From a virus: a stretch of DNA of 37,329 bases. The DNA lies in the UHGV virus genome UHGV-0230703. One strand, written 5' to 3'. Each line of letters opens with the position of its first letter. Position 1 is the first letter of the stretch. Of the stretch, positions 4,884 to 22,462 are shown piece by piece. The notes beneath the pieces were generated by a model that did not search any database, had not been told where the DNA came from, and was given only the letters and a program-made list of their open reading frames with translations. Made by a program: the position numbers and the translations under genes.

Positions 4884-6254
4884 CTATCTGTTCATAACCG
4901 TTAATATCAAGGTACAAATACCTAGCATGGTTAACCCAAATTGCAACAATTCTTTTTTTTGTACACTCATACTTTTCATTAGCTCTTTAACTCCCATTAG
5001 TACTAAGATGGTAATAACAACGTAAAGTATATAGTACGTTCGCATTCCTGAAGCCCAGACCGTGGGAGAAAATCCCATAATTAATCTTGAGCAAAATCCC
5101 ATTATCATCAAAATAACTAAGAAAGTAGCAGTTCTTTTATTGTCAAAACTTAAATAAATTCCAACAACTAAACATAGTAACAACCCCAAAACTGCTAAAG
5201 TGGCTATCCAGGTACCAGGATAAAAAAGTGACAGTTTCGTTCCTCCCTCTGTAAAGAGATTATTCAGGTTACTACTACTCCAAATCATTGCTCTTTTATT
5301 TCCATGAACATAAGTAAAACTTTGTCCCATTGTATTGCCAAAATAAATAATCAAATTTAAGAAAAACGGCAATGCAGTCAATATACGTACATAGTAGTTT
5401 TGACATTTCCTATATGTTAAAAGGAATACTAGGAAAAATAGCAATAAAAATAAAATATTCGTGTCTAAAAAAAATGGCTTTCCAAATGATGAAATACCTA
5501 AGTCTAGCTTATTAAGAAAGTTGAAATCTTTATATTCAGGAAACCATTTATTAATTTCATGCGTAGCACGTAATGCATTCCCTGGAGTTGTCAAAGAGAA
5601 AATCAATTCTGCTAAACTTATTAGTGAAAATACTGATAACTTATAATTGTATCGCCTATTAGCAATCAAATACAGACTAACTATGCTTGTTAGAACAAAA
5701 AAACAGGAGTTGACTTGTTCTTGATTAGTTGAAAATATCAACAGAGGAATACTTACCCAATATATTTTTCTAGTTATTTCTCCCCCTCTTAAAAGTTGGA
5801 AAAACGGATAAAAGGCTAGTAAACTAAACGCTACTGGCCACTGATAGTTTAATGTAGTTGCTCTCCAACCCGTTTCCCCCATTACTGTTAATGGTATTAA
5901 ACAGTATATAGAACAAACTAATAACAAATTTTTAACATTTGTTTTCTCAAAAACATATTTGCAGAGTAATACTACAGTCCCTAACATAATCGTAGAATTT
6001 AATATTTTCCATAGCATAAAGTGTTTAGAAAAAAACATTAAGAATAGTTCCACAATAATTCTTGAACTCCATGTTTTGTAATGTTCTATCGAAGCACCCA
6101 AATAGCCAAGTTTATCTAATCTACTTGCGTAAGCTAAATCATCTGCTCTAATAGTCGGCATATACATATTAAAGAGCAAAAAGACAACCCAAATCCCTAA
6201 TAGCATCACGATCAGTTCTTTATTGTACATTATTTTTCTATTATGTTTGTTCAT
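4884..6254 (-). CDS. polytopic (about 12 TM) membrane protein with GT-C-like features; lysogenic-conversion / surface-glycosylation candidate
   Basis: start moved to ATG 6254 (RBS AAGGAG 8 nt upstream) from the track's TTG 6281; many hydrophobic helices; acidic RADDLAY motif in the first loop as in GT-C glycosyltransferases. Confidence 0.8.
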   Translation of the reverse strand: MNKHNRKIMYNKELIVMLLGIWVVFLLFNMYMPTIRADDLAYASRLDKLGYLGASIEHYKTWSSRIIVELFLMFFSKHFMLWKILNSTIMLGTVVLLCKYVFEKTNVKNLLLVCSIYCLIPLTVMGETGWRATTLNYQWPVAFSLLAFYPFFQLLRGGEITRKIYWVSIPLLIFSTNQEQVNSCFFVLTSIVSLYLIANRRYNYKLSVFSLISLAELIFSLTTPGNALRATHEINKWFPEYKDFNFLNKLDLGISSFGKPFFLDTNILFLLLFFLVFLLTYRKCQNYYVRILTALPFFLNLIIYFGNTMGQSFTYVHGNKRAMIWSSSNLNNLFTEGGTKLSLFYPGTWIATLAVLGLLLCLVVGIYLSFDNKRTATFLVILMIMGFCSRLIMGFSPTVWASGMRTYYILYVVITILVLMGVKELMKSMSVQKKELLQFGLTMLGICTLILTVMNR

Positions 6255-7949: not shown

Positions 7950-8324
7950 TTATTCTCCCCCTTCAAGTTGTTCTTTGATAGTAGCAATGTCTTTTGTTTT
8001 TTGAAGGGATGTCAGCATGGTTTTAGAATTGATTTGTGCTAGTGATTCCGCTTTTGAAGCAAGCTCTTCATTTGCTTTTTTTAAAGCTTCATTATCTACT
8101 TGTAAACCTGTAGATAAATTTTCTAGTAGTTCCAATTTTTTAGAATAATCTTGTGTAACTGCTTCTTCCCATTTATTTTCAGTAAAATTGAAAAACTGGG
8201 ATTGAGAATCGCTCAAACTTTCTAAAGGTTTAATCTCAACAAATGGTAAAGTTGTTGGAAACCCCTCTTCTACTTCGTGTTCTTCATATCCTAATGGATA
8301 AAGTACCTTATAAATTAATTTCAT
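7950..8324 (-). CDS. XkdW-like protein (124 aa) preceding XkdX/holin
   Basis: position and N-terminal IYKVLYP...W pattern resembling the PBSX XkdW family; C-terminal coiled coil. Confidence 0.5.
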   Translation of the reverse strand: MKLIYKVLYPLGYEEHEVEEGFPTTLPFVEIKPLESLSDSQSQFFNFTENKWEEAVTQDYSKKLELLENLSTGLQVDNEALKKANEELASKAESLAQINSKTMLTSLQKTKDIATIKEQLEGGE

Positions 8325-17986: not shown

Positions 17987-18280
17987 TCAAGAGTTAGCTT
18001 TAGTTAGTAAGCTTTGGAATTTTTTATCTTGTTTTGAAAGTTCGGAAACTCCCATGATTGAATCTTCGATTTTTTGATAATTAAAGAATTCTTCAAAGGA
18101 TCGATATACAGGAACTGTCTTTTTGCCTACTTTTTTCTCCGCTTGGACTTGCTGATTTGCCCACGCTAATTCGTGAATCAACTTTTCTTTGTCAAGCCAG
18201 GATAACTGGGCTGCAGTCATACGAATGTTGTATTCATATAAAGTCATTCTTTCGATATCTGAAATATTGGTCATTCCCAA
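17987..18280 (-). CDS. gpT-like extension of tail assembly chaperone, expressed as a gpGT fusion by -1 frameshift from 18328..18696
   Basis: frame is open upstream (no start needed) back to the slip site 18388..18394; ends overlapping the TMP start. Confidence 0.75.
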   Translation of the reverse strand: MGMTNISDIERMTLYEYNIRMTAAQLSWLDKEKLIHELAWANQQVQAEKKVGKKTVPVYRSFEEFFNYQKIEDSIMGVSELSKQDKKFQSLLTKANS

Positions 18281-18327
18281 ATATCGAAAGGAATTTATAA
18301 GAATTTGTTCATATGCAAGCGCAGAAT

Positions 18328-18696
18328 CTATTCCGCCTGTTGTTTTTCCGCTTCTTTCAATTTCTGATTCAGGTTTCGGACCGCTAACTTTCCCGCATTT
18401 GACTCTGCTAATTCTTTTAAGACGTTATCAAACAATTTTTCAATGTCTTTAACTTCATCGATGTAATCATCCAATTCATCTAATGTAATAGATTCATCTT
18501 CAGTTCTATTTGCTATTTCCAGAACTCGTGACAACGTGTTGACATTATAAGAACGTAATTCCGGTAAGACTTTTGCTGAGAGTCCCATTCCAAATTCCAT
18601 ATTTCCATCGATGAAAGGCATCACTTTGTCTAATTCACGTACAAATTTAGTGCCAAATTTAAACGAATATTCTTTACCTTTAATTTTTAATTTCAA
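18328..18696 (-). CDS. tail assembly chaperone (gpG-like)
   Basis: 122 aa between major tail and TMP; contains the slippery heptamer G_GGA_AAG 20 codons before its stop. Confidence 0.8.
   Translation of the reverse strand: MKLKIKGKEYSFKFGTKFVRELDKVMPFIDGNMEFGMGLSAKVLPELRSYNVNTLSRVLEIANRTEDESITLDELDDYIDEVKDIEKLFDNVLKELAESNAGKLAVRNLNQKLKEAEKQQAE
18388..18394 (-). other. -1 programmed frameshift site GGGAAAG (identical to lambda G/GT)
   Basis: minus strand ...GCG GGA AAG TTA...; the -1 frame (GGG AAA GTT AGC...) stays open into ORF 17987..18280. Confidence 0.75.
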
Positions 18697-20305: not shown

Positions 20306-20631
20306 ATAAATTTAAACCTCCCTCGATTTGGCTTGTACAACTCTTCCTGATCTTTACGCTTAAATTCGTCAATCTCATTTTGATACTCTGAAAAATCCGA
20401 ATCAGGAAAAGCCATAGATAAACCTTCTTGAGAATATGACTGCATACCTTCTTGACCAATTCTATTGAATCTTTTCAACGATACTTCATATACAACTGTT
20501 TCAAATTCTTTAGGAACTTCTTGCGTATTTAACAAGGTTTTCATACGCTCATTCGTTCTTCGCTCAATAACTTCAAGCTTTTCATCTAGTGTTCCTTTAA
20601 GAAGTTTTTTAATATCCTCTGCAATCGTCAT
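20302..20631 (-). CDS. head-tail connector protein (gp6-like)
   Basis: 109 aa directly after MCP/Ig; helical N-terminus typical of phage gp6-like connectors. Confidence 0.65.
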   Translation of the reverse strand: MTIAEDIKKLLKGTLDEKLEVIERRTNERMKTLLNTQEVPKEFETVVYEVSLKRFNRIGQEGMQSYSQEGLSMAFPDSDFSEYQNEIDEFKRKDQEELYKPNRGRFKFI

Positions 20632-20642
20632 ATTTTTACTTC

Positions 20643-20906
20643 CTAACTAGCAGGTTGACCTGTCACATTGATTGAAGTAGTGAATTCTCCAGAAGTAAAT
20701 GTGAATGTTGCTGATCCTTCTGCTGCAATCGTTCCATCAAAACCACCATTTTCATTTTTGGTCACTGTTGCGATAGCTCCATCACTTGAAGTTGCTGTAG
20801 TAGCTGCAACAACAGTAGCTGCATCGCTAGCATCTGCAGGCACAGCTGAAATAGTAAATGTTTTAGTATCGCCTACTTTACCGGTCCATGTCTTTTGATT
20901 TGGCAC
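20643..20906 (-). CDS. Ig-like (Big_2-type) domain ORF; most likely a C-terminal extension of MCP via -1 frameshift, not independently initiated
   Basis: no RBS, GTG only; frame open upstream to the CCCAAAA slip site inside the MCP 3' end; Thr/Ala-rich beta-sandwich-like sequence. Confidence 0.7.
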   Translation of the reverse strand: MPNQKTWTGKVGDTKTFTISAVPADASDAATVVAATTATSSDGAIATVTKNENGGFDGTIAAEGSATFTFTSGEFTTSINVTGQPAS

Positions 20907-20923
20907 AATACCGGTAGCAGGCG

Positions 20924-21847
20924 TTACGCTTTTGGGGAAATCTTCCCAAATGCTTCATCTTTTACAATCATAAATCCAACATCCATTGTTGCACGCAAAG
21001 CAATCAGTTCTTGCTCAAACAAGTTAACTGGGGTTCCATCTTCATTATTTAAAGTAGACAATTGGGCTTCTTCAGAAATCTTAAATGAAATATTATATGG
21101 GATCCCATAAAACATGTAGTTGAAGTCTCCAGCGTAAAGAGTCCCTTTATCTAAAGACTTAAGGTCTACTACTGGTAATCCGTCAATTGTATTAGCAGAG
21201 CGATCATAAATAAACTCAACATTTGACCCGACTGTTTGAGCTGCAGAACGTAATTCTGTACGATTTTTTCGGTTTGAAATAAACGCATTAGGTTCGAATT
21301 CATTTTCTGCTAACTTGTCTTCTAAGGCTAGGATATTATCATAAGTCAATCCGCCTTCAACCACATTCCCCGCACTAATAACTGATTCGTCTAGTGACTG
21401 AGGAAATGGATTTTCTTTATTTAATAAGGCAGCTGCATCAAATTTTTTATAGAAAGCTTCAGCAATTTTTGGCTGCATCTCAGCAAAGAAATCTGATAAT
21501 TTATAATTTAAATATTCACGAGAAACCGGAAGAATGACACCGAGTTTTTTTGCAGTCATCGTAGCTTCTATCCATTTAGGTTTAGATGTTTTAATTTTTT
21601 CACCTTCACCCACCCAATATGCGCCTGGTCCTTCTGCAAAGTATTCAAATTTCTTTTCTTTGTCAGTCATTTCTTCGTATTTTGCTAACTGCATGATCTT
21701 AGAGTTTTCCATAACTTCACTCAAAATGAGCGTATTATATTTATCAGGAATTTTTCCCTCTTTCGTTTCATATACCATAACATTATCTGGATCCCATGTT
21801 TGAGCAAACATTTGCAAGTTCATTGGTAAAAGTTGTTTCTTTTTCAT
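20924..21847 (-). CDS. major capsid protein (HK97 fold)
   Basis: 307 aa after scaffold; RBS AGGAGG; N-terminal MNLQMFA L27-like motif. Confidence 0.9.
   Translation of the reverse strand: MKKKQLLPMNLQMFAQTWDPDNVMVYETKEGKIPDKYNTLILSEVMENSKIMQLAKYEEMTDKEKKFEYFAEGPGAYWVGEGEKIKTSKPKWIEATMTAKKLGVILPVSREYLNYKLSDFFAEMQPKIAEAFYKKFDAAALLNKENPFPQSLDESVISAGNVVEGGLTYDNILALEDKLAENEFEPNAFISNRKNRTELRSAAQTVGSNVEFIYDRSANTIDGLPVVDLKSLDKGTLYAGDFNYMFYGIPYNISFKISEEAQLSTLNNEDGTPVNLFEQELIALRATMDVGFMIVKDEAFGKISPKA
20930..20936 (-). other. -1 programmed frameshift site C_CCA_AAA, 2 codons before the MCP stop
   Basis: MCP frame ...ATT TCC CCA AAA GCG TAA; -1 frame CCC AAA AGC GTA ACG CCT... continues 94 codons through the Ig-like ORF to 20643. 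Confidence 0.65.
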
Positions 21848-21859
21848 TAAGTTTTCCTC

Positions 21860-22462
21860 CTATTTGATAATTCGATTTTTAGCAGCTAGCTTAGCCACTG
21901 TTTCTTTAGTATTTTTCGATGCTGTAAATTGTCCACCTTCATTTGGTGGTGTTTGTCTTGCGTTTTCTCTCTTAATCAAAGAAGCAAAGTTAGCGATGAC
22001 TGCTACAGCTTGTTTTGTGGCATCTGCATCATCAGAAACAATCAGCCCAAGTAAATCATCATCGTGTGGTAAATTTGCATCTGTTAGCATTTTAGAAGCT
22101 TCTTTCGTCATTTCAGATAGTGCCTGTCCACGCTTTAATTCAGCGATTTCAGCTTCTTTTTGTTCCAACTCATGCTGTAGTTTTTCTTCCGCATTCATTT
22201 TTGCCAGCTTTTTAGCTTCTTCTTTTTTTGCTTCTAGTTCTTTTTCCCACGCTGCTTTTGCTTTATTCGTTTCAGCAGCGATCATTTTCGCTACTTCATC
22301 ACGAGAAAATGTTTTGCCAGTATTGTTTTCTTCTTTTGCTTCGGTCGGTGTCTCTTGTGAGCCAGCTGGTAGGTTTCCTTGTTGTCCCTCATCACCAGAT
22401 CCACCATCTCCTGGTTCAAAAAAAAATTGTAAGTTCATTGGCATAAATAAACGTTTTTTCAT
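21860..22462 (-). CDS. scaffolding protein
   Basis: 200 aa, Ala/Glu/Lys-rich coiled coil; RBS GGAGGA; N-terminal MNLQFFF motif shared with MCP. Confidence 0.75.
   Translation of the reverse strand: MKKRLFMPMNLQFFFEPGDGGSGDEGQQGNLPAGSQETPTEAKEENNTGKTFSRDEVAKMIAAETNKAKAAWEKELEAKKEEAKKLAKMNAEEKLQHELEQKEAEIAELKRGQALSEMTKEASKMLTDANLPHDDDLLGLIVSDDADATKQAVAVIANFASLIKRENARQTPPNEGGQFTASKNTKETVAKLAAKNRIIK

Follow-up and report, generated by a model that had tools for sequence, protein, structure and literature searches.

In Lactobacillus casei phage A2, the major head proteins gp5A/gp5B reportedly arise by programmed -1 ribosomal frameshifting (PRF) at C_CCA_AAA, in work attributed to Garcia et al. 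2004 (J Bacteriol 186:1714), and Rodriguez et al. 2005 are said to have dealt with the major tail protein gp10A/gp10B of the same phage. Frameshifted Ig extensions of capsid and tail proteins, viz. those of T3 (-1), Listeria A118, A500 (-1) and PSA (+1), are reportedly covered by Fraser et al. 2006 under the title 'Ig-like domains on bacteriophages'. A review states that in A2 -1 frameshifting is required for an essential head component and a tail protein and that the extension is Ig-like; it describes these events as -1 frameshifting, citing a paper titled 'A -1 ribosomal frameshift...' (PMC5009743). In the major head genes of L. casei-group phages, the slippery sequence on record is CCCAAAA (PMC6950654). 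Further, the Ig domain is in frame in some phage relatives and out of frame in others, and in the published view its frame relation is due to chance, following from non-homologous recombination, with selection for frameshifting coming afterwards (PMC5009743). No link between Enterococcus major capsid proteins (MCPs), frameshifting and Ig-like domains was found in the papers searched. The locus described here lies in the genome of an Enterococcus faecium-group phage (UHGV-0230703), of which a stretch of 37,329 nucleotides (the window) was analysed. Very probably, programmed -1 ribosomal frameshifting of the A2 type at C_CCA_AAA yields in this phage a 401-aa capsid-Ig fusion beside the 307-aa MCP. 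The mechanism is already known from A2, and the window phage adds another case of it, which the earlier note had called correctly. All of the features concerned are on the minus strand and they are as follows.

20924..21847, minus strand: MCP gene, zero frame, 307 aa, HK97 fold; its TAA stop (20926..20924) is included
20936..20930, minus strand: slippery heptamer C_CCA_AAA (X_XXY_YYZ), zero frame, within the overlap; P site Pro CCA, A site Lys AAA
20646..20930, minus strand: predicted C-terminal extension, -1 frame, 95 new residues (SVTPATG...TGQPAS)
20655..20912, minus strand: predicted Ig-like (Big_2-type) beta-sandwich, from an AlphaFold2 model and Foldseek
20904..20906, minus strand: GTG used as a start by gene callers for an 87-aa 'hypothetical protein' (separate CDS in PQ283533 and PQ554527)
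20870..20923, minus strand: predicted 3' stimulatory hairpin, beginning 6 nt past the heptamer, with a loop of 24 nt
CGCCUGCU (20923..20916) with AGUAGGCG (20877..20870), minus strand: outer helix of the predicted hairpin
ACCGGU (20915..20910) with ACCGGU (20885..20880), minus strand: inner helix of the predicted hairpin
18394..18388, in the same window: frameshift site G_GGA_AAG of the tail assembly chaperone

The MCP gene, whose ATG is preceded by AGGAGG at 8 nt, matches Phage_capsid in Pfam (PF05065, 1.7e-33) and phrog_10 in PHROGs (1e-58), and its 3' end reads ...GGG AAG ATT TCC CCA AAA GCG TAA in the zero frame, so that the stop sits one codon past C_CCA_AAA. The overlapping -1 frame is limited upstream by a TGA (20957..20955) and is open from 20954 to a TAG (20645..20643), i.e. 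for 103 codons, of which it shares the last 9 codons of the MCP gene. A -1 slip at the heptamer gives in translation ...GKISPK-SVTPATGIVPNQKTW..., and from the heptamer to the -1 stop there are 97 residues, 95 of them new relative to the MCP. The predicted masses are 44.0 kDa for the frameshifted product of 401 aa and 34.8 kDa for the MCP of 307 aa, or 42.3 and 33.0 kDa, respectively, with N-terminal cleavage after F14. The -1 frame relation, the CCCAAAA heptamer and the ...ISP- junction are thus read directly from the sequence as the earlier note had described them.

The stretch of 97 residues beginning at the heptamer, whose 87-aa domain the earlier note had described as beta-sandwich-like, does model as an Ig-like fold, the AlphaFold2 model of the extension having a pLDDT of 89.3 and a pTM of 0.78. 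The matches of this model in the PDB (Foldseek) are headed by Big_2-CBM56 (7r3t, E 7e-5), the C-terminal Ig domain of lambda gpV (7t4f, TM 0.81) and LigA and also include SbsC and the capsid Ig domains of N4 and phi29, and in PHROGs the extension matches phrog_215, 'structural protein with Ig domain' (4e-15). The -1 extension of A2 orf5 is 41% identical to that of the window (BLASTP, E 1e-15). However, a direct match to Pfam Big_2 (PF02368) was not found at E<=1, either for the extension or for two close variants. Members of the same cassette family do score above the Big_2 gathering cut-off of 22.8 bits (30.5 bits for the A2 orf5 extension, 63.7 for that of A2 orf10 and 38-70 for others). Because Pfam gives no direct match, the Big_2 label is taken from the predicted fold, from transitive homology and from phrog_215; the 'Big_2-type' assignment of the earlier note hence stands on these and not on the Pfam scan, and the model indicates that the extension has a Big_2-type Ig-like beta-sandwich fold. 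A match of the extension to PEX6_vert_N in Pfam (E 0.033) was rejected as spurious. When the Ig domain was used in a word-indexed protein search, only stand-alone Enterococcus calls of 66-104 aa and no annotated fusion were obtained; the Rosetta-stone fusion evidence comes from the MCP-based genome scan and not from this search.

In regard to the heptamer, X_XXY_YYZ sequences occur in frame at 0.62% of the codon positions of the window's long ORFs, among which CCCAAAA in frame is found a single time, and the chance of having such a heptamer inside an overlap of 9 codons is about 5.6% (about 1 in 18) for a single locus. Because of this chance value, the heptamer at a single locus is only suggestive; once the comparative evidence is added, its presence is much more than chance. 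The 19-nt signal CCCAAAAGCGTAACGCCTG is identical in 19 of 19 nt at the end of the A2 major head gene orf5, and C_CCA_AAA is present in A2 orf10 as well as orf5, identical to the window site. Precedents in phages of Gram-positive bacteria had been invoked earlier in general terms, and that of A2 is closer than was claimed, the signal being nucleotide-identical and the extension homologous. Within Enterococcus, C_CCA_AAA is retained in diverged lineages, with A_AAA_AAA in its place in two others. In Enterococcus phages, the same Ig module also stands in the -1 frame behind three further MCP families, all unrelated; A_AAA_AAA takes the place of CCCAAAA in two of the three, and in all of these Enterococcus cases the heptamer is followed by GCG TA(A/G) CGCC. 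The relative EFC-1 has neither the Ig ORF nor the heptamer and reads CAA CCA AAA there. The homopolymer runs at the slip site of the window are C4 and A4 only; an A7 run is found in the cassette variants L047 and phiFL4A, and the database variant P0001 has a C-run shorter by one C. In phage AE4_2, the label 'tail tube protein', which would hint at movement of the domain between head and tail in Enterococcus, is probably an annotation error, because the matching region of phiFL4A follows the capsid gene gp39.

The hairpin predicted 3' of the heptamer has 14 bp and is interrupted, and its computed minimum free energy is -26.4 kcal/mol (z = -2.5). Across 12 sequences, pairing in the outer helix is complete (100% of cells), all changes in it being wobble-compatible. 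The inner helix is lost in phiFL4A, and when both sides of the pairs were checked for covariation, the close Enterococcus set held no double compensatory change. Support for the structure is drawn from the conservation of synonymous sites and from the broader family of cassettes. In the slip site and the outer arms, 5 out of 5 codons for an invariant amino acid with fourfold degeneracy are single-codon across 28 unique sequences, while all 28 comparable codons in the rest of the ORF vary in the same sequences (Fisher estimate about 4e-6); judged by this codon usage, the RNA of the slip site and the hairpin arms is under selection. In the wider family, 49 unique cassette contexts were compared with shuffled sequences; in 26 of them the helix that begins precisely at +6 nt outdoes 95% or more of the shuffles, and about one third of the 49 are without a simple anchored helix. 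The inner arms covary across the cassette contexts (viz. CGCCACC/GGUGGCG, CGCCAUC/GAUGGCG, CGCCGAC/GUCGGCG, CGCCAGCCU/AGGUUGGCG and others). An RNA structure is thus predicted 3' of the heptamer, as is characteristic of sites of the A2 type, and a stimulatory role is predicted for it.

If the Ig-like ORF were instead an independent gene for a small decoration protein, then its translation should begin at GTG 20906, the ribosomes either initiating there directly or reinitiating after termination at the MCP stop. This GTG is the sole early start codon of the -1 ORF and lies 17 nt downstream of the MCP stop; PQ283533 and PQ554527 give the ORF a CDS of its own, and about 29 database clusters consist of stand-alone calls of 66-104 aa. 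However, the GTG has no Shine-Dalgarno motif in the sequence that precedes it, TAACGCCTGCTACCGGTATT, in agreement with what the earlier note had said of the ribosome-binding site, whereas GGAGG, AGGAGG, AGGAAG or GGGAGG precedes the real genes nearby. Further, the GTG is confined to the lineage of the window, and the other five of the six lineages examined have GCT, GTT or ACG at this position. None of the six has ATG anywhere in the -1 ORF, nor any start codon before the GTG position; the first ATG/GTG/TTG in the other five is at codon 33-85, and a start there would truncate the beta-sandwich. Upstream of the GTG the peptide SVTPATGIVPNQK is encoded, and the 10 codons before the GTG (PKSVTPATGI) are conserved as protein back to phage A2, which is unexpected if they are untranslated. 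A decoration gene similar to Hoc or gpD would have its own conserved start codon and a ribosome-binding site, and these are lacking here. An independent gene is, on these grounds, quite improbable, and GTG 20906 most likely codes for an internal Val.

Still less probable is transcriptional slippage, in which RNA polymerase slips on the A or C run and some of the mRNAs become one base short. The A7 run of L047 and phiFL4A is of a length within its reach, but the C4 and A4 runs of the window are too short for efficient polymerase slippage. The conserved and covarying hairpin located 6 nt downstream marks ribosomal frameshifting and not slippage of the polymerase, and the A2 events are described in the review as -1 frameshifting (PMC5009743). 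It is similarly hard to credit that the ORF is a relic without expression, or that an error of sequencing or assembly has put an in-frame MCP-Ig fusion out of frame. Orthologues with in-frame Ig-like fusions exist and P0001 has one C fewer, but the frame relation and the placement of the stop one codon past the heptamer are shared by isolated phages and by more than 40 independent contigs, the -1 ORF shows many synonymous differences with its protein sequence kept, its fold model is confident, and the exact cassette is present at 102 sites behind at least 15 unrelated proteins.

According to ribosomal frameshifting of the A2 type, most ribosomes on the capsid mRNA would stop at the TAA to give the 307-aa MCP. 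Some ribosomes would pause at the hairpin with tRNA-Pro on CCA and tRNA-Lys on AAA, slip one base in the 5' direction (CCA_AAA to CCC_AAA) and then read the -1 frame, giving a product of 401 aa, MCP(1-306)-SVTPATG..., in which a flexible linker leads to a Big_2-type Ig-like domain. The short and long MCPs would co-assemble, so that the capsid surface would carry substoichiometric Ig-like domains, which probably adhere weakly to cell-surface or environmental carbohydrate. Slippage in the window phage, its efficiency, the incorporation of the long form into virions and the function of the domain are what we infer from this comparison; most likely, a minority of the capsid subunits are longer by about 9 kDa and bear an antibody-like surface domain.

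The recoding signal may also be considered in a broader context. The exact 17-mer CCCAAAAGCGTARCGCC occurs at 102 sites in IMG/VR, behind at least 15 proteins that are unrelated by BLAST, and the proteins upstream of it, which all end in ...PKA*, belong to 8 major-head and 3 major-tail PHROGs. The domain in the cassette usually has a Big_2 Ig-like fold, and in about one fifth of the cases it is a short helical domain. We lean, by a modest degree, to the interpretation that the recoding signal is part of a portable cassette (consisting of the heptamer, one codon, the stop, a hairpin with a 5' arm starting CGCC, a PKSV(T/A)P linker and a decoration domain), which has been recombined onto the 3' ends of many unrelated major head and tail genes in Firmicutes phages. 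In contrast to the published view based on chance, domain and slip site here seem to move together. If this is true, then a shell or tube protein which receives the cassette gains a ready-made, substoichiometric display of a surface domain. That an identical cassette stands behind many unrelated head and tail genes points to a recoding module that can be transferred, one that could be used for substoichiometric capsid display and whose sharp sequence signature could serve frameshift-prediction tools.

For annotation, what is listed at such a position as a 'hypothetical protein' of 87 aa, or as a second 'major head protein', most likely represents the C-terminal portion of a capsid protein made by frameshifting, and this re-annotation reaches the window phage, isolates that are 98% identical and about 40 related prophage contigs. 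The capsids of these phages would bear Ig-like domains, which elsewhere have been proposed as weak adhesins for glycans or mucus, and this bears on the use of Enterococcus phages in the gut or in therapy, for which they are being considered.

Among the known systems, the tail assembly chaperone G/GT of the lambda type likewise depends upon -1 PRF at X_XXY_YYZ in a phage structural operon, but the gene, the signal and the purpose are different, the product being an assembly chaperone outside the virion. In phi29 gp8, an MCP that is among the fold matches of the window extension, a BIG2 domain is fused in frame on every subunit and no recoding is involved. The MCP orthologues of Lachnospiraceae/Dorea prophages (67-69% identity) carry an in-frame Ig-like domain (PF18316) straight after VKDEAFAKL, and because of this the MCP C-terminus can be taken to tolerate such a domain. 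These orthologues share the MCP family and the attachment point with the window phage, but each of their subunits carries the domain without recoding, and the domain families differ (S-l_SbsC_C there, Big_2-like in the window). They also mirror the published variation between in-frame and out-of-frame domains. In T3, A118, A500 and PSA, recoding equips some copies of a major virion protein with a C-terminal Ig-like domain, as it would in the window phage, but the slip sites and directions are others. From phage A2 itself the window phage differs in its host (Enterococcus rather than Lactobacillus), in the distal part of the hairpin, in a tail tube gene without the Ig-type extension that A2 orf10 has, and in its MCP body, which is of the 80alpha/EFC-1 lineage and lacks a phage-encoded protease, A2 orf5 having 400 aa and a processed mature peptide; frameshifting has been demonstrated in A2 and is predicted in the window phage. 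In both of them, however, the extension is at the C-terminus of an HK97-fold MCP and in the -1 frame, its linker is PKSVTP (with which the A2 -1 ORF begins), and the two phages agree to the letter in the heptamer, the GCG TAA stop after it and the CGCCTG that opens the hairpin.

Every gene of this region lies on the minus strand, and the gene for the major capsid protein (MCP) lies between a scaffold gene upstream and a head-tail connector gene downstream. In the zero frame the 3' end of the MCP gene reads GGG AAG ATT TCC CCA AAA GCG TAA, and it is overlapped by an ORF in the -1 frame (the Ig ORF). The features at this junction are:

21847..20924, minus strand: MCP gene, HK97-fold, 307 aa (Pfam Phage_capsid PF05065, E 1.7e-33; phrog_10 'major head protein', 1e-58)
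20954 (directly after a TGA) to the TAG at 20645..20643, minus strand: -1 frame open for 103 codons, by translation
20936..20930, minus strand: slippery heptamer C_CCA_AAA

This heptamer is the sole site in the 9-codon overlap that allows two-tRNA re-pairing after a one-base backward slip, and the predicted product is MCP(1-306) followed by SVTPATGIVPNQKTW...TGQPAS (401 aa and 44.0 kDa; MCP, 34.8 kDa). The coordinates, junction peptide and description in the earlier note all agree with our reading of the sequence. However, an in-frame X_XXY_YYZ heptamer is expected by chance in about 5.6% of such overlaps (at rates from the window) and, due to this, the window's locus taken alone is suggestive only. 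The sequence analysis establishes the anatomy of the junction, its conservation and its homology to a validated case. From these we consider it very probable that tandem tRNA slippage occurs at C_CCA_AAA, that it is stimulated by a downstream hairpin, and that its efficiency would be such as to yield a minority of MCP-Ig subunits, which would co-assemble with MCP. A database protein cluster, P0001 (104 aa, 3 member sequences, contigs up to 1152 nt), reads MKHLGRFPKSVTP..., implying that the C4 run of its slip site is shorter by one C; such a loss would change the frame relation of the Ig ORF to MCP, and this variant could reflect either a sequencing error in the homopolymer or a natural mutation of the slip site.

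If the Ig ORF were instead translated by independent initiation, then the GTG at 20906 would have to serve as its start. As claimed in the earlier note, there is no RBS and only this GTG: it is preceded by TAACGCCTGCTACCGGTATT, whereas the real neighbouring genes carry, at normal spacing, GGAGG, AGGAGG, AGGAAG or GGGAGG. The GTG is kept in 22 of 28 unique homologous sequences, all 22 from the window's own lineage, and outside this lineage the position is GTT, GCT or ACG. An ATG is absent from the -1 ORF in every lineage examined, and in five other lineages the first ATG/GTG/TTG falls at codon 33, 42, 51, 59 or 85, within the beta-sandwich. Despite the variable GTG, the ten residues 5' of it (PKSVTPATGI) are conserved at the protein level. 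Judged from its sequence, the Ig ORF is without an independent start, and initiation of this kind is poorly supported. The GenBank entries of two 98%-identical phages give MCP and the Ig ORF as separate CDSs, the latter as an 87-aa product called 'hypothetical protein' or a second 'major head protein', with a frameshift annotation in neither entry. An entry matching window positions 20500..22000, PQ554527.1 (L002), is named 'Acinetobacter phage D2SVT' with A. baumannii AB5075 as its host, and its head module is 98.2% identical both to the window and to an Enterococcus phage; this host assignment looks doubtful, and the sequence could come from contamination or from induction of an Enterococcus prophage.

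The Ig module is encoded at 44 IMG/VR loci (Enterococcus lineages), and in all Enterococcus lineages compared the Ig ORF occupies the -1 frame and the zero-frame stop falls one codon past the heptamer. In five viral loci (L052-L056) the same MCP family is diverged, the Ig domain is ~72% identical and the nucleotides flanking the junction differ, with CCCAAAAGCGTA(A/G)CGCC unchanged. In L049 and L050 an unrelated upstream MCP (phrog_267, Pfam Phage_capsid_4) also ends ATT TCC CCA AAA GCG TAG. A third MCP type is found in L047 (a phrog_840 match) and in Enterococcus phage phiFL4A, whose gp39 is a 'capsid protein' by annotation; these genes end ...AAA AAA GCG TA(G/A) and therefore have a different canonical heptamer, A_AAA_AAA. 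The phiFL4A Ig ORF 3' of gp39 (L058, 1501..1776) is annotated just as a truncated 50-aa gp40, and the homologous region of AE4_2 (MT747435) is named 'tail tube protein'; both labels seem to have arisen because annotators missed the same frameshift, here at A_AAA_AAA. In phage EFC-1 the MCP gene is 75% identical and the connector gene follows directly; its MCP end reads CAA CCA AAA GCT GCG GGG GAG TAA, with no heptamer and no Ig ORF. MCP orthologues from Lachnospiraceae/Dorea prophages (67-69% identity over 304 residues) carry, from exactly the same point (…VKDEAFAKL-TSGGLGKLTV…), an in-frame extension of ~95 residues matching the Ig-like domain S-l_SbsC_C (Pfam PF18316, 4e-15). Most of the best 120 MCP homologues show this in-frame architecture, and the others have an in-frame domain of ~125 aa, a tail of ~45 aa, or nothing. 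It follows from these varied additions that this MCP family tolerates, and often uses, the attachment of surface domains at its C-terminus.

The AlphaFold2 prediction for the 97-residue extension, based on a 15-sequence alignment, is confident (pLDDT 89.3, pTM 0.78) and shows mainly beta-strand with one short helix. Its Foldseek matches in the PDB include Big_2-CBM56 (7r3t, E 7e-5), the phage SU10 tail, Leptospira LigA, SbsC and the C-terminal Ig domain of the lambda tail-tube protein gpV (7t4f, TM 0.81; 2l04), and, at lower ranks, Ig domains of the phage N4 capsid and phi29 MCP; phrog_215 'structural protein with Ig domain' also matches (4e-15). The earlier designation of this domain as Ig-like is thus upheld, whereas its 'Big_2-type' label rests on fold and transitive homology rather than on an HMM, because Pfam Big_2 gave no match to the window's extension sequence. 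The domain may have an adhesive role.

Six nt 3' of the heptamer, a spacer within the usual range for stimulators of -1 frameshifting, the RNA is predicted to fold as CGCCUGCU-ACCGGU-(24-nt loop)-ACCGGU-AA-AGUAGGCG (MFE -26.4 kcal/mol, z = -2.5). All 12 Enterococcus sequences compared retain full pairing of the 8-bp outer helix; its three variable pairs show wobble-compatible changes alone (C-G to U-G, G-U to A-U, U-A to U-G), with no double compensatory change. The inner helix is absent in phiFL4A. Stronger evidence comes from two other tests. Where the amino acid is invariant and its codons are at least 3-fold degenerate in 28 unique sequences, 5/5 tested codons in the slip site and outer arms are single-codon (V GTA, P CCT, V GTA, G GGC, T ACT), whereas 28/28 elsewhere in the Ig ORF vary, including those between both arms (Fisher estimate ~4e-6, the sequences being phylogenetically related). 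Further, in a wider family sharing this junction a helix with its 5' arm beginning exactly at CGCC recurs, and its inner sequences are diverse yet mutually complementary (CGCCACC/GGUGGCG, CGCCAUC/GAUGGCG, CGCCGUC/GACGGCG, CGCCGAC/GUCGGCG, CGCCUGA/UCAGGCG, CGCCAGCCU/AGGUUGGCG, CGCCGGCUU/AAGUCGGCG), with loops of 4 to 52 nt. Among the matches listed, 26 of 49 unique contexts beat at least 95% of shuffles (expected ~2.5), and these are spread over 11 of 15 upstream-gene clusters; a simple ungapped helix is missing in about one third of the 49. Slippage during transcription, as an alternative to ribosomal slippage, is poorly supported.

This wider family was identified by scanning IMG/VR for the exact 17-mer CCCAAAAGCGTARCGCC, which occurs in at least 118 stretches at no fewer than 121 sites. 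At least 102 sites combine a zero-frame ORF (100 aa or longer, ending ...PKA*) with a -1 ORF (50 codons or longer, starting PKSV(T/A)P). Among the matches listed, the upstream proteins form at least 15 clusters mutually unrelated by BLASTP, with at least 8 major-head PHROGs (10, 2263, 247, 422, 840, 29, 267 when L049 is included, and 3270; protease-MCP fusions account for two) and at least 3 major-tail PHROGs (88, 820, 238). Downstream, at least 81 domains belong to one Ig-like cluster, several matching Pfam Big_2 (38-70 bits); at least 19 are of ~60 residues and end ...TVAQITAWLDAHSI.H.GVT.KADLLALVPAE, none of the 19 listed matching a Pfam family, and 2 further listed domains are of neither type. 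The ~60-residue module (…TVAQITAWLDAHSISHTGVTAKADLLALVPAE) is found in L063, L074, L081, L089, L166, L177, L138 and other IMG/VR loci, and the Enterococcus MCP homologues L008 and P0065 have an in-frame tail of ~45 aa (…KSEIKAILDEQGIEYTDKETKDELLAKLGE) with weak helix-extension-helix-like matches. These patterns suggest that slip site, stop, hairpin start and linker move with the decoration domain as one module; however, as the 17-mer is fixed by the search design, the scan is blind to the module's variability, and convergence is also possible. That the Ig ORF is a remnant or an assembly error is poorly supported.

The tail assembly chaperone pair (17987..18696, minus strand) carries a putative second canonical -1 frameshift signal:

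18696..18328, minus strand: gene G
18388..18394, minus strand: in-frame heptamer G_GGA_AAG, the same as in lambda G-T

An open -1 frame of 145 codons extends here from 18424 to 17987 and enters an ORF listed as a separate hypothetical protein in PQ283533. Additionally, the N-termini of MCP (MKKKQLLPMNLQMF|AQ; 21806..21847, minus strand) and scaffold (MKKRLFMPMNLQFFFE; 22400..22462, minus strand) share the motif xMNLQ(M/F)F. This motif is similar to the F|A site in the capsid and scaffold proteins of staphylococcal phage 80alpha that is cut by Prp, a host protease also responsible for processing ribosomal protein L27 (PMC5744158). The 80alpha MCP gene has ~65% nucleotide identity to the window's, and the head module of the 98%-identical relative is annotated without any phage protease gene.

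Regarding significance, the mechanism is already known; what is new is the host group, the MCP lineage, the mis-annotation in current records and, tentatively, a recoding cassette common to many unrelated head and tail genes. The precedent in Gram-positive phages invoked in the earlier note is confirmed by Lactobacillus phage A2, in which -1 frameshifting has been shown experimentally: phages of the L. casei group have CCCAAAA as the slippery sequence of their major head genes (PMC6950654), and recoding similar to that of A2 occurs in T3 and the Listeria phages A118, A500 and PSA (review PMC5009743). Viral contig L137 has the exact 17-nt cassette twice (5846..5862 and 8240..8256, 2.4 kb apart), one copy behind a head gene of phrog_10/2263 type and the other behind a major tail gene of phrog_88. 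The arrangement is like that of A2, where the major tail gene orf10 ends GCC CCA AAA GCG TAG followed by an 89-codon -1 ORF. The A2 (NC_004112) major head gene orf5 ends ACC CCA AAA GCG TAA CGCCTG..., with a -1 frame of 99 codons reading PKSVTPDGVTLSQKT...; thus, 19 consecutive nt are common to the window and A2, viz. heptamer, spacer and stop plus the six bases that begin the hairpin, and the two extensions are 41% identical (E 1e-15), so that the window's system is homologous to this textbook example.
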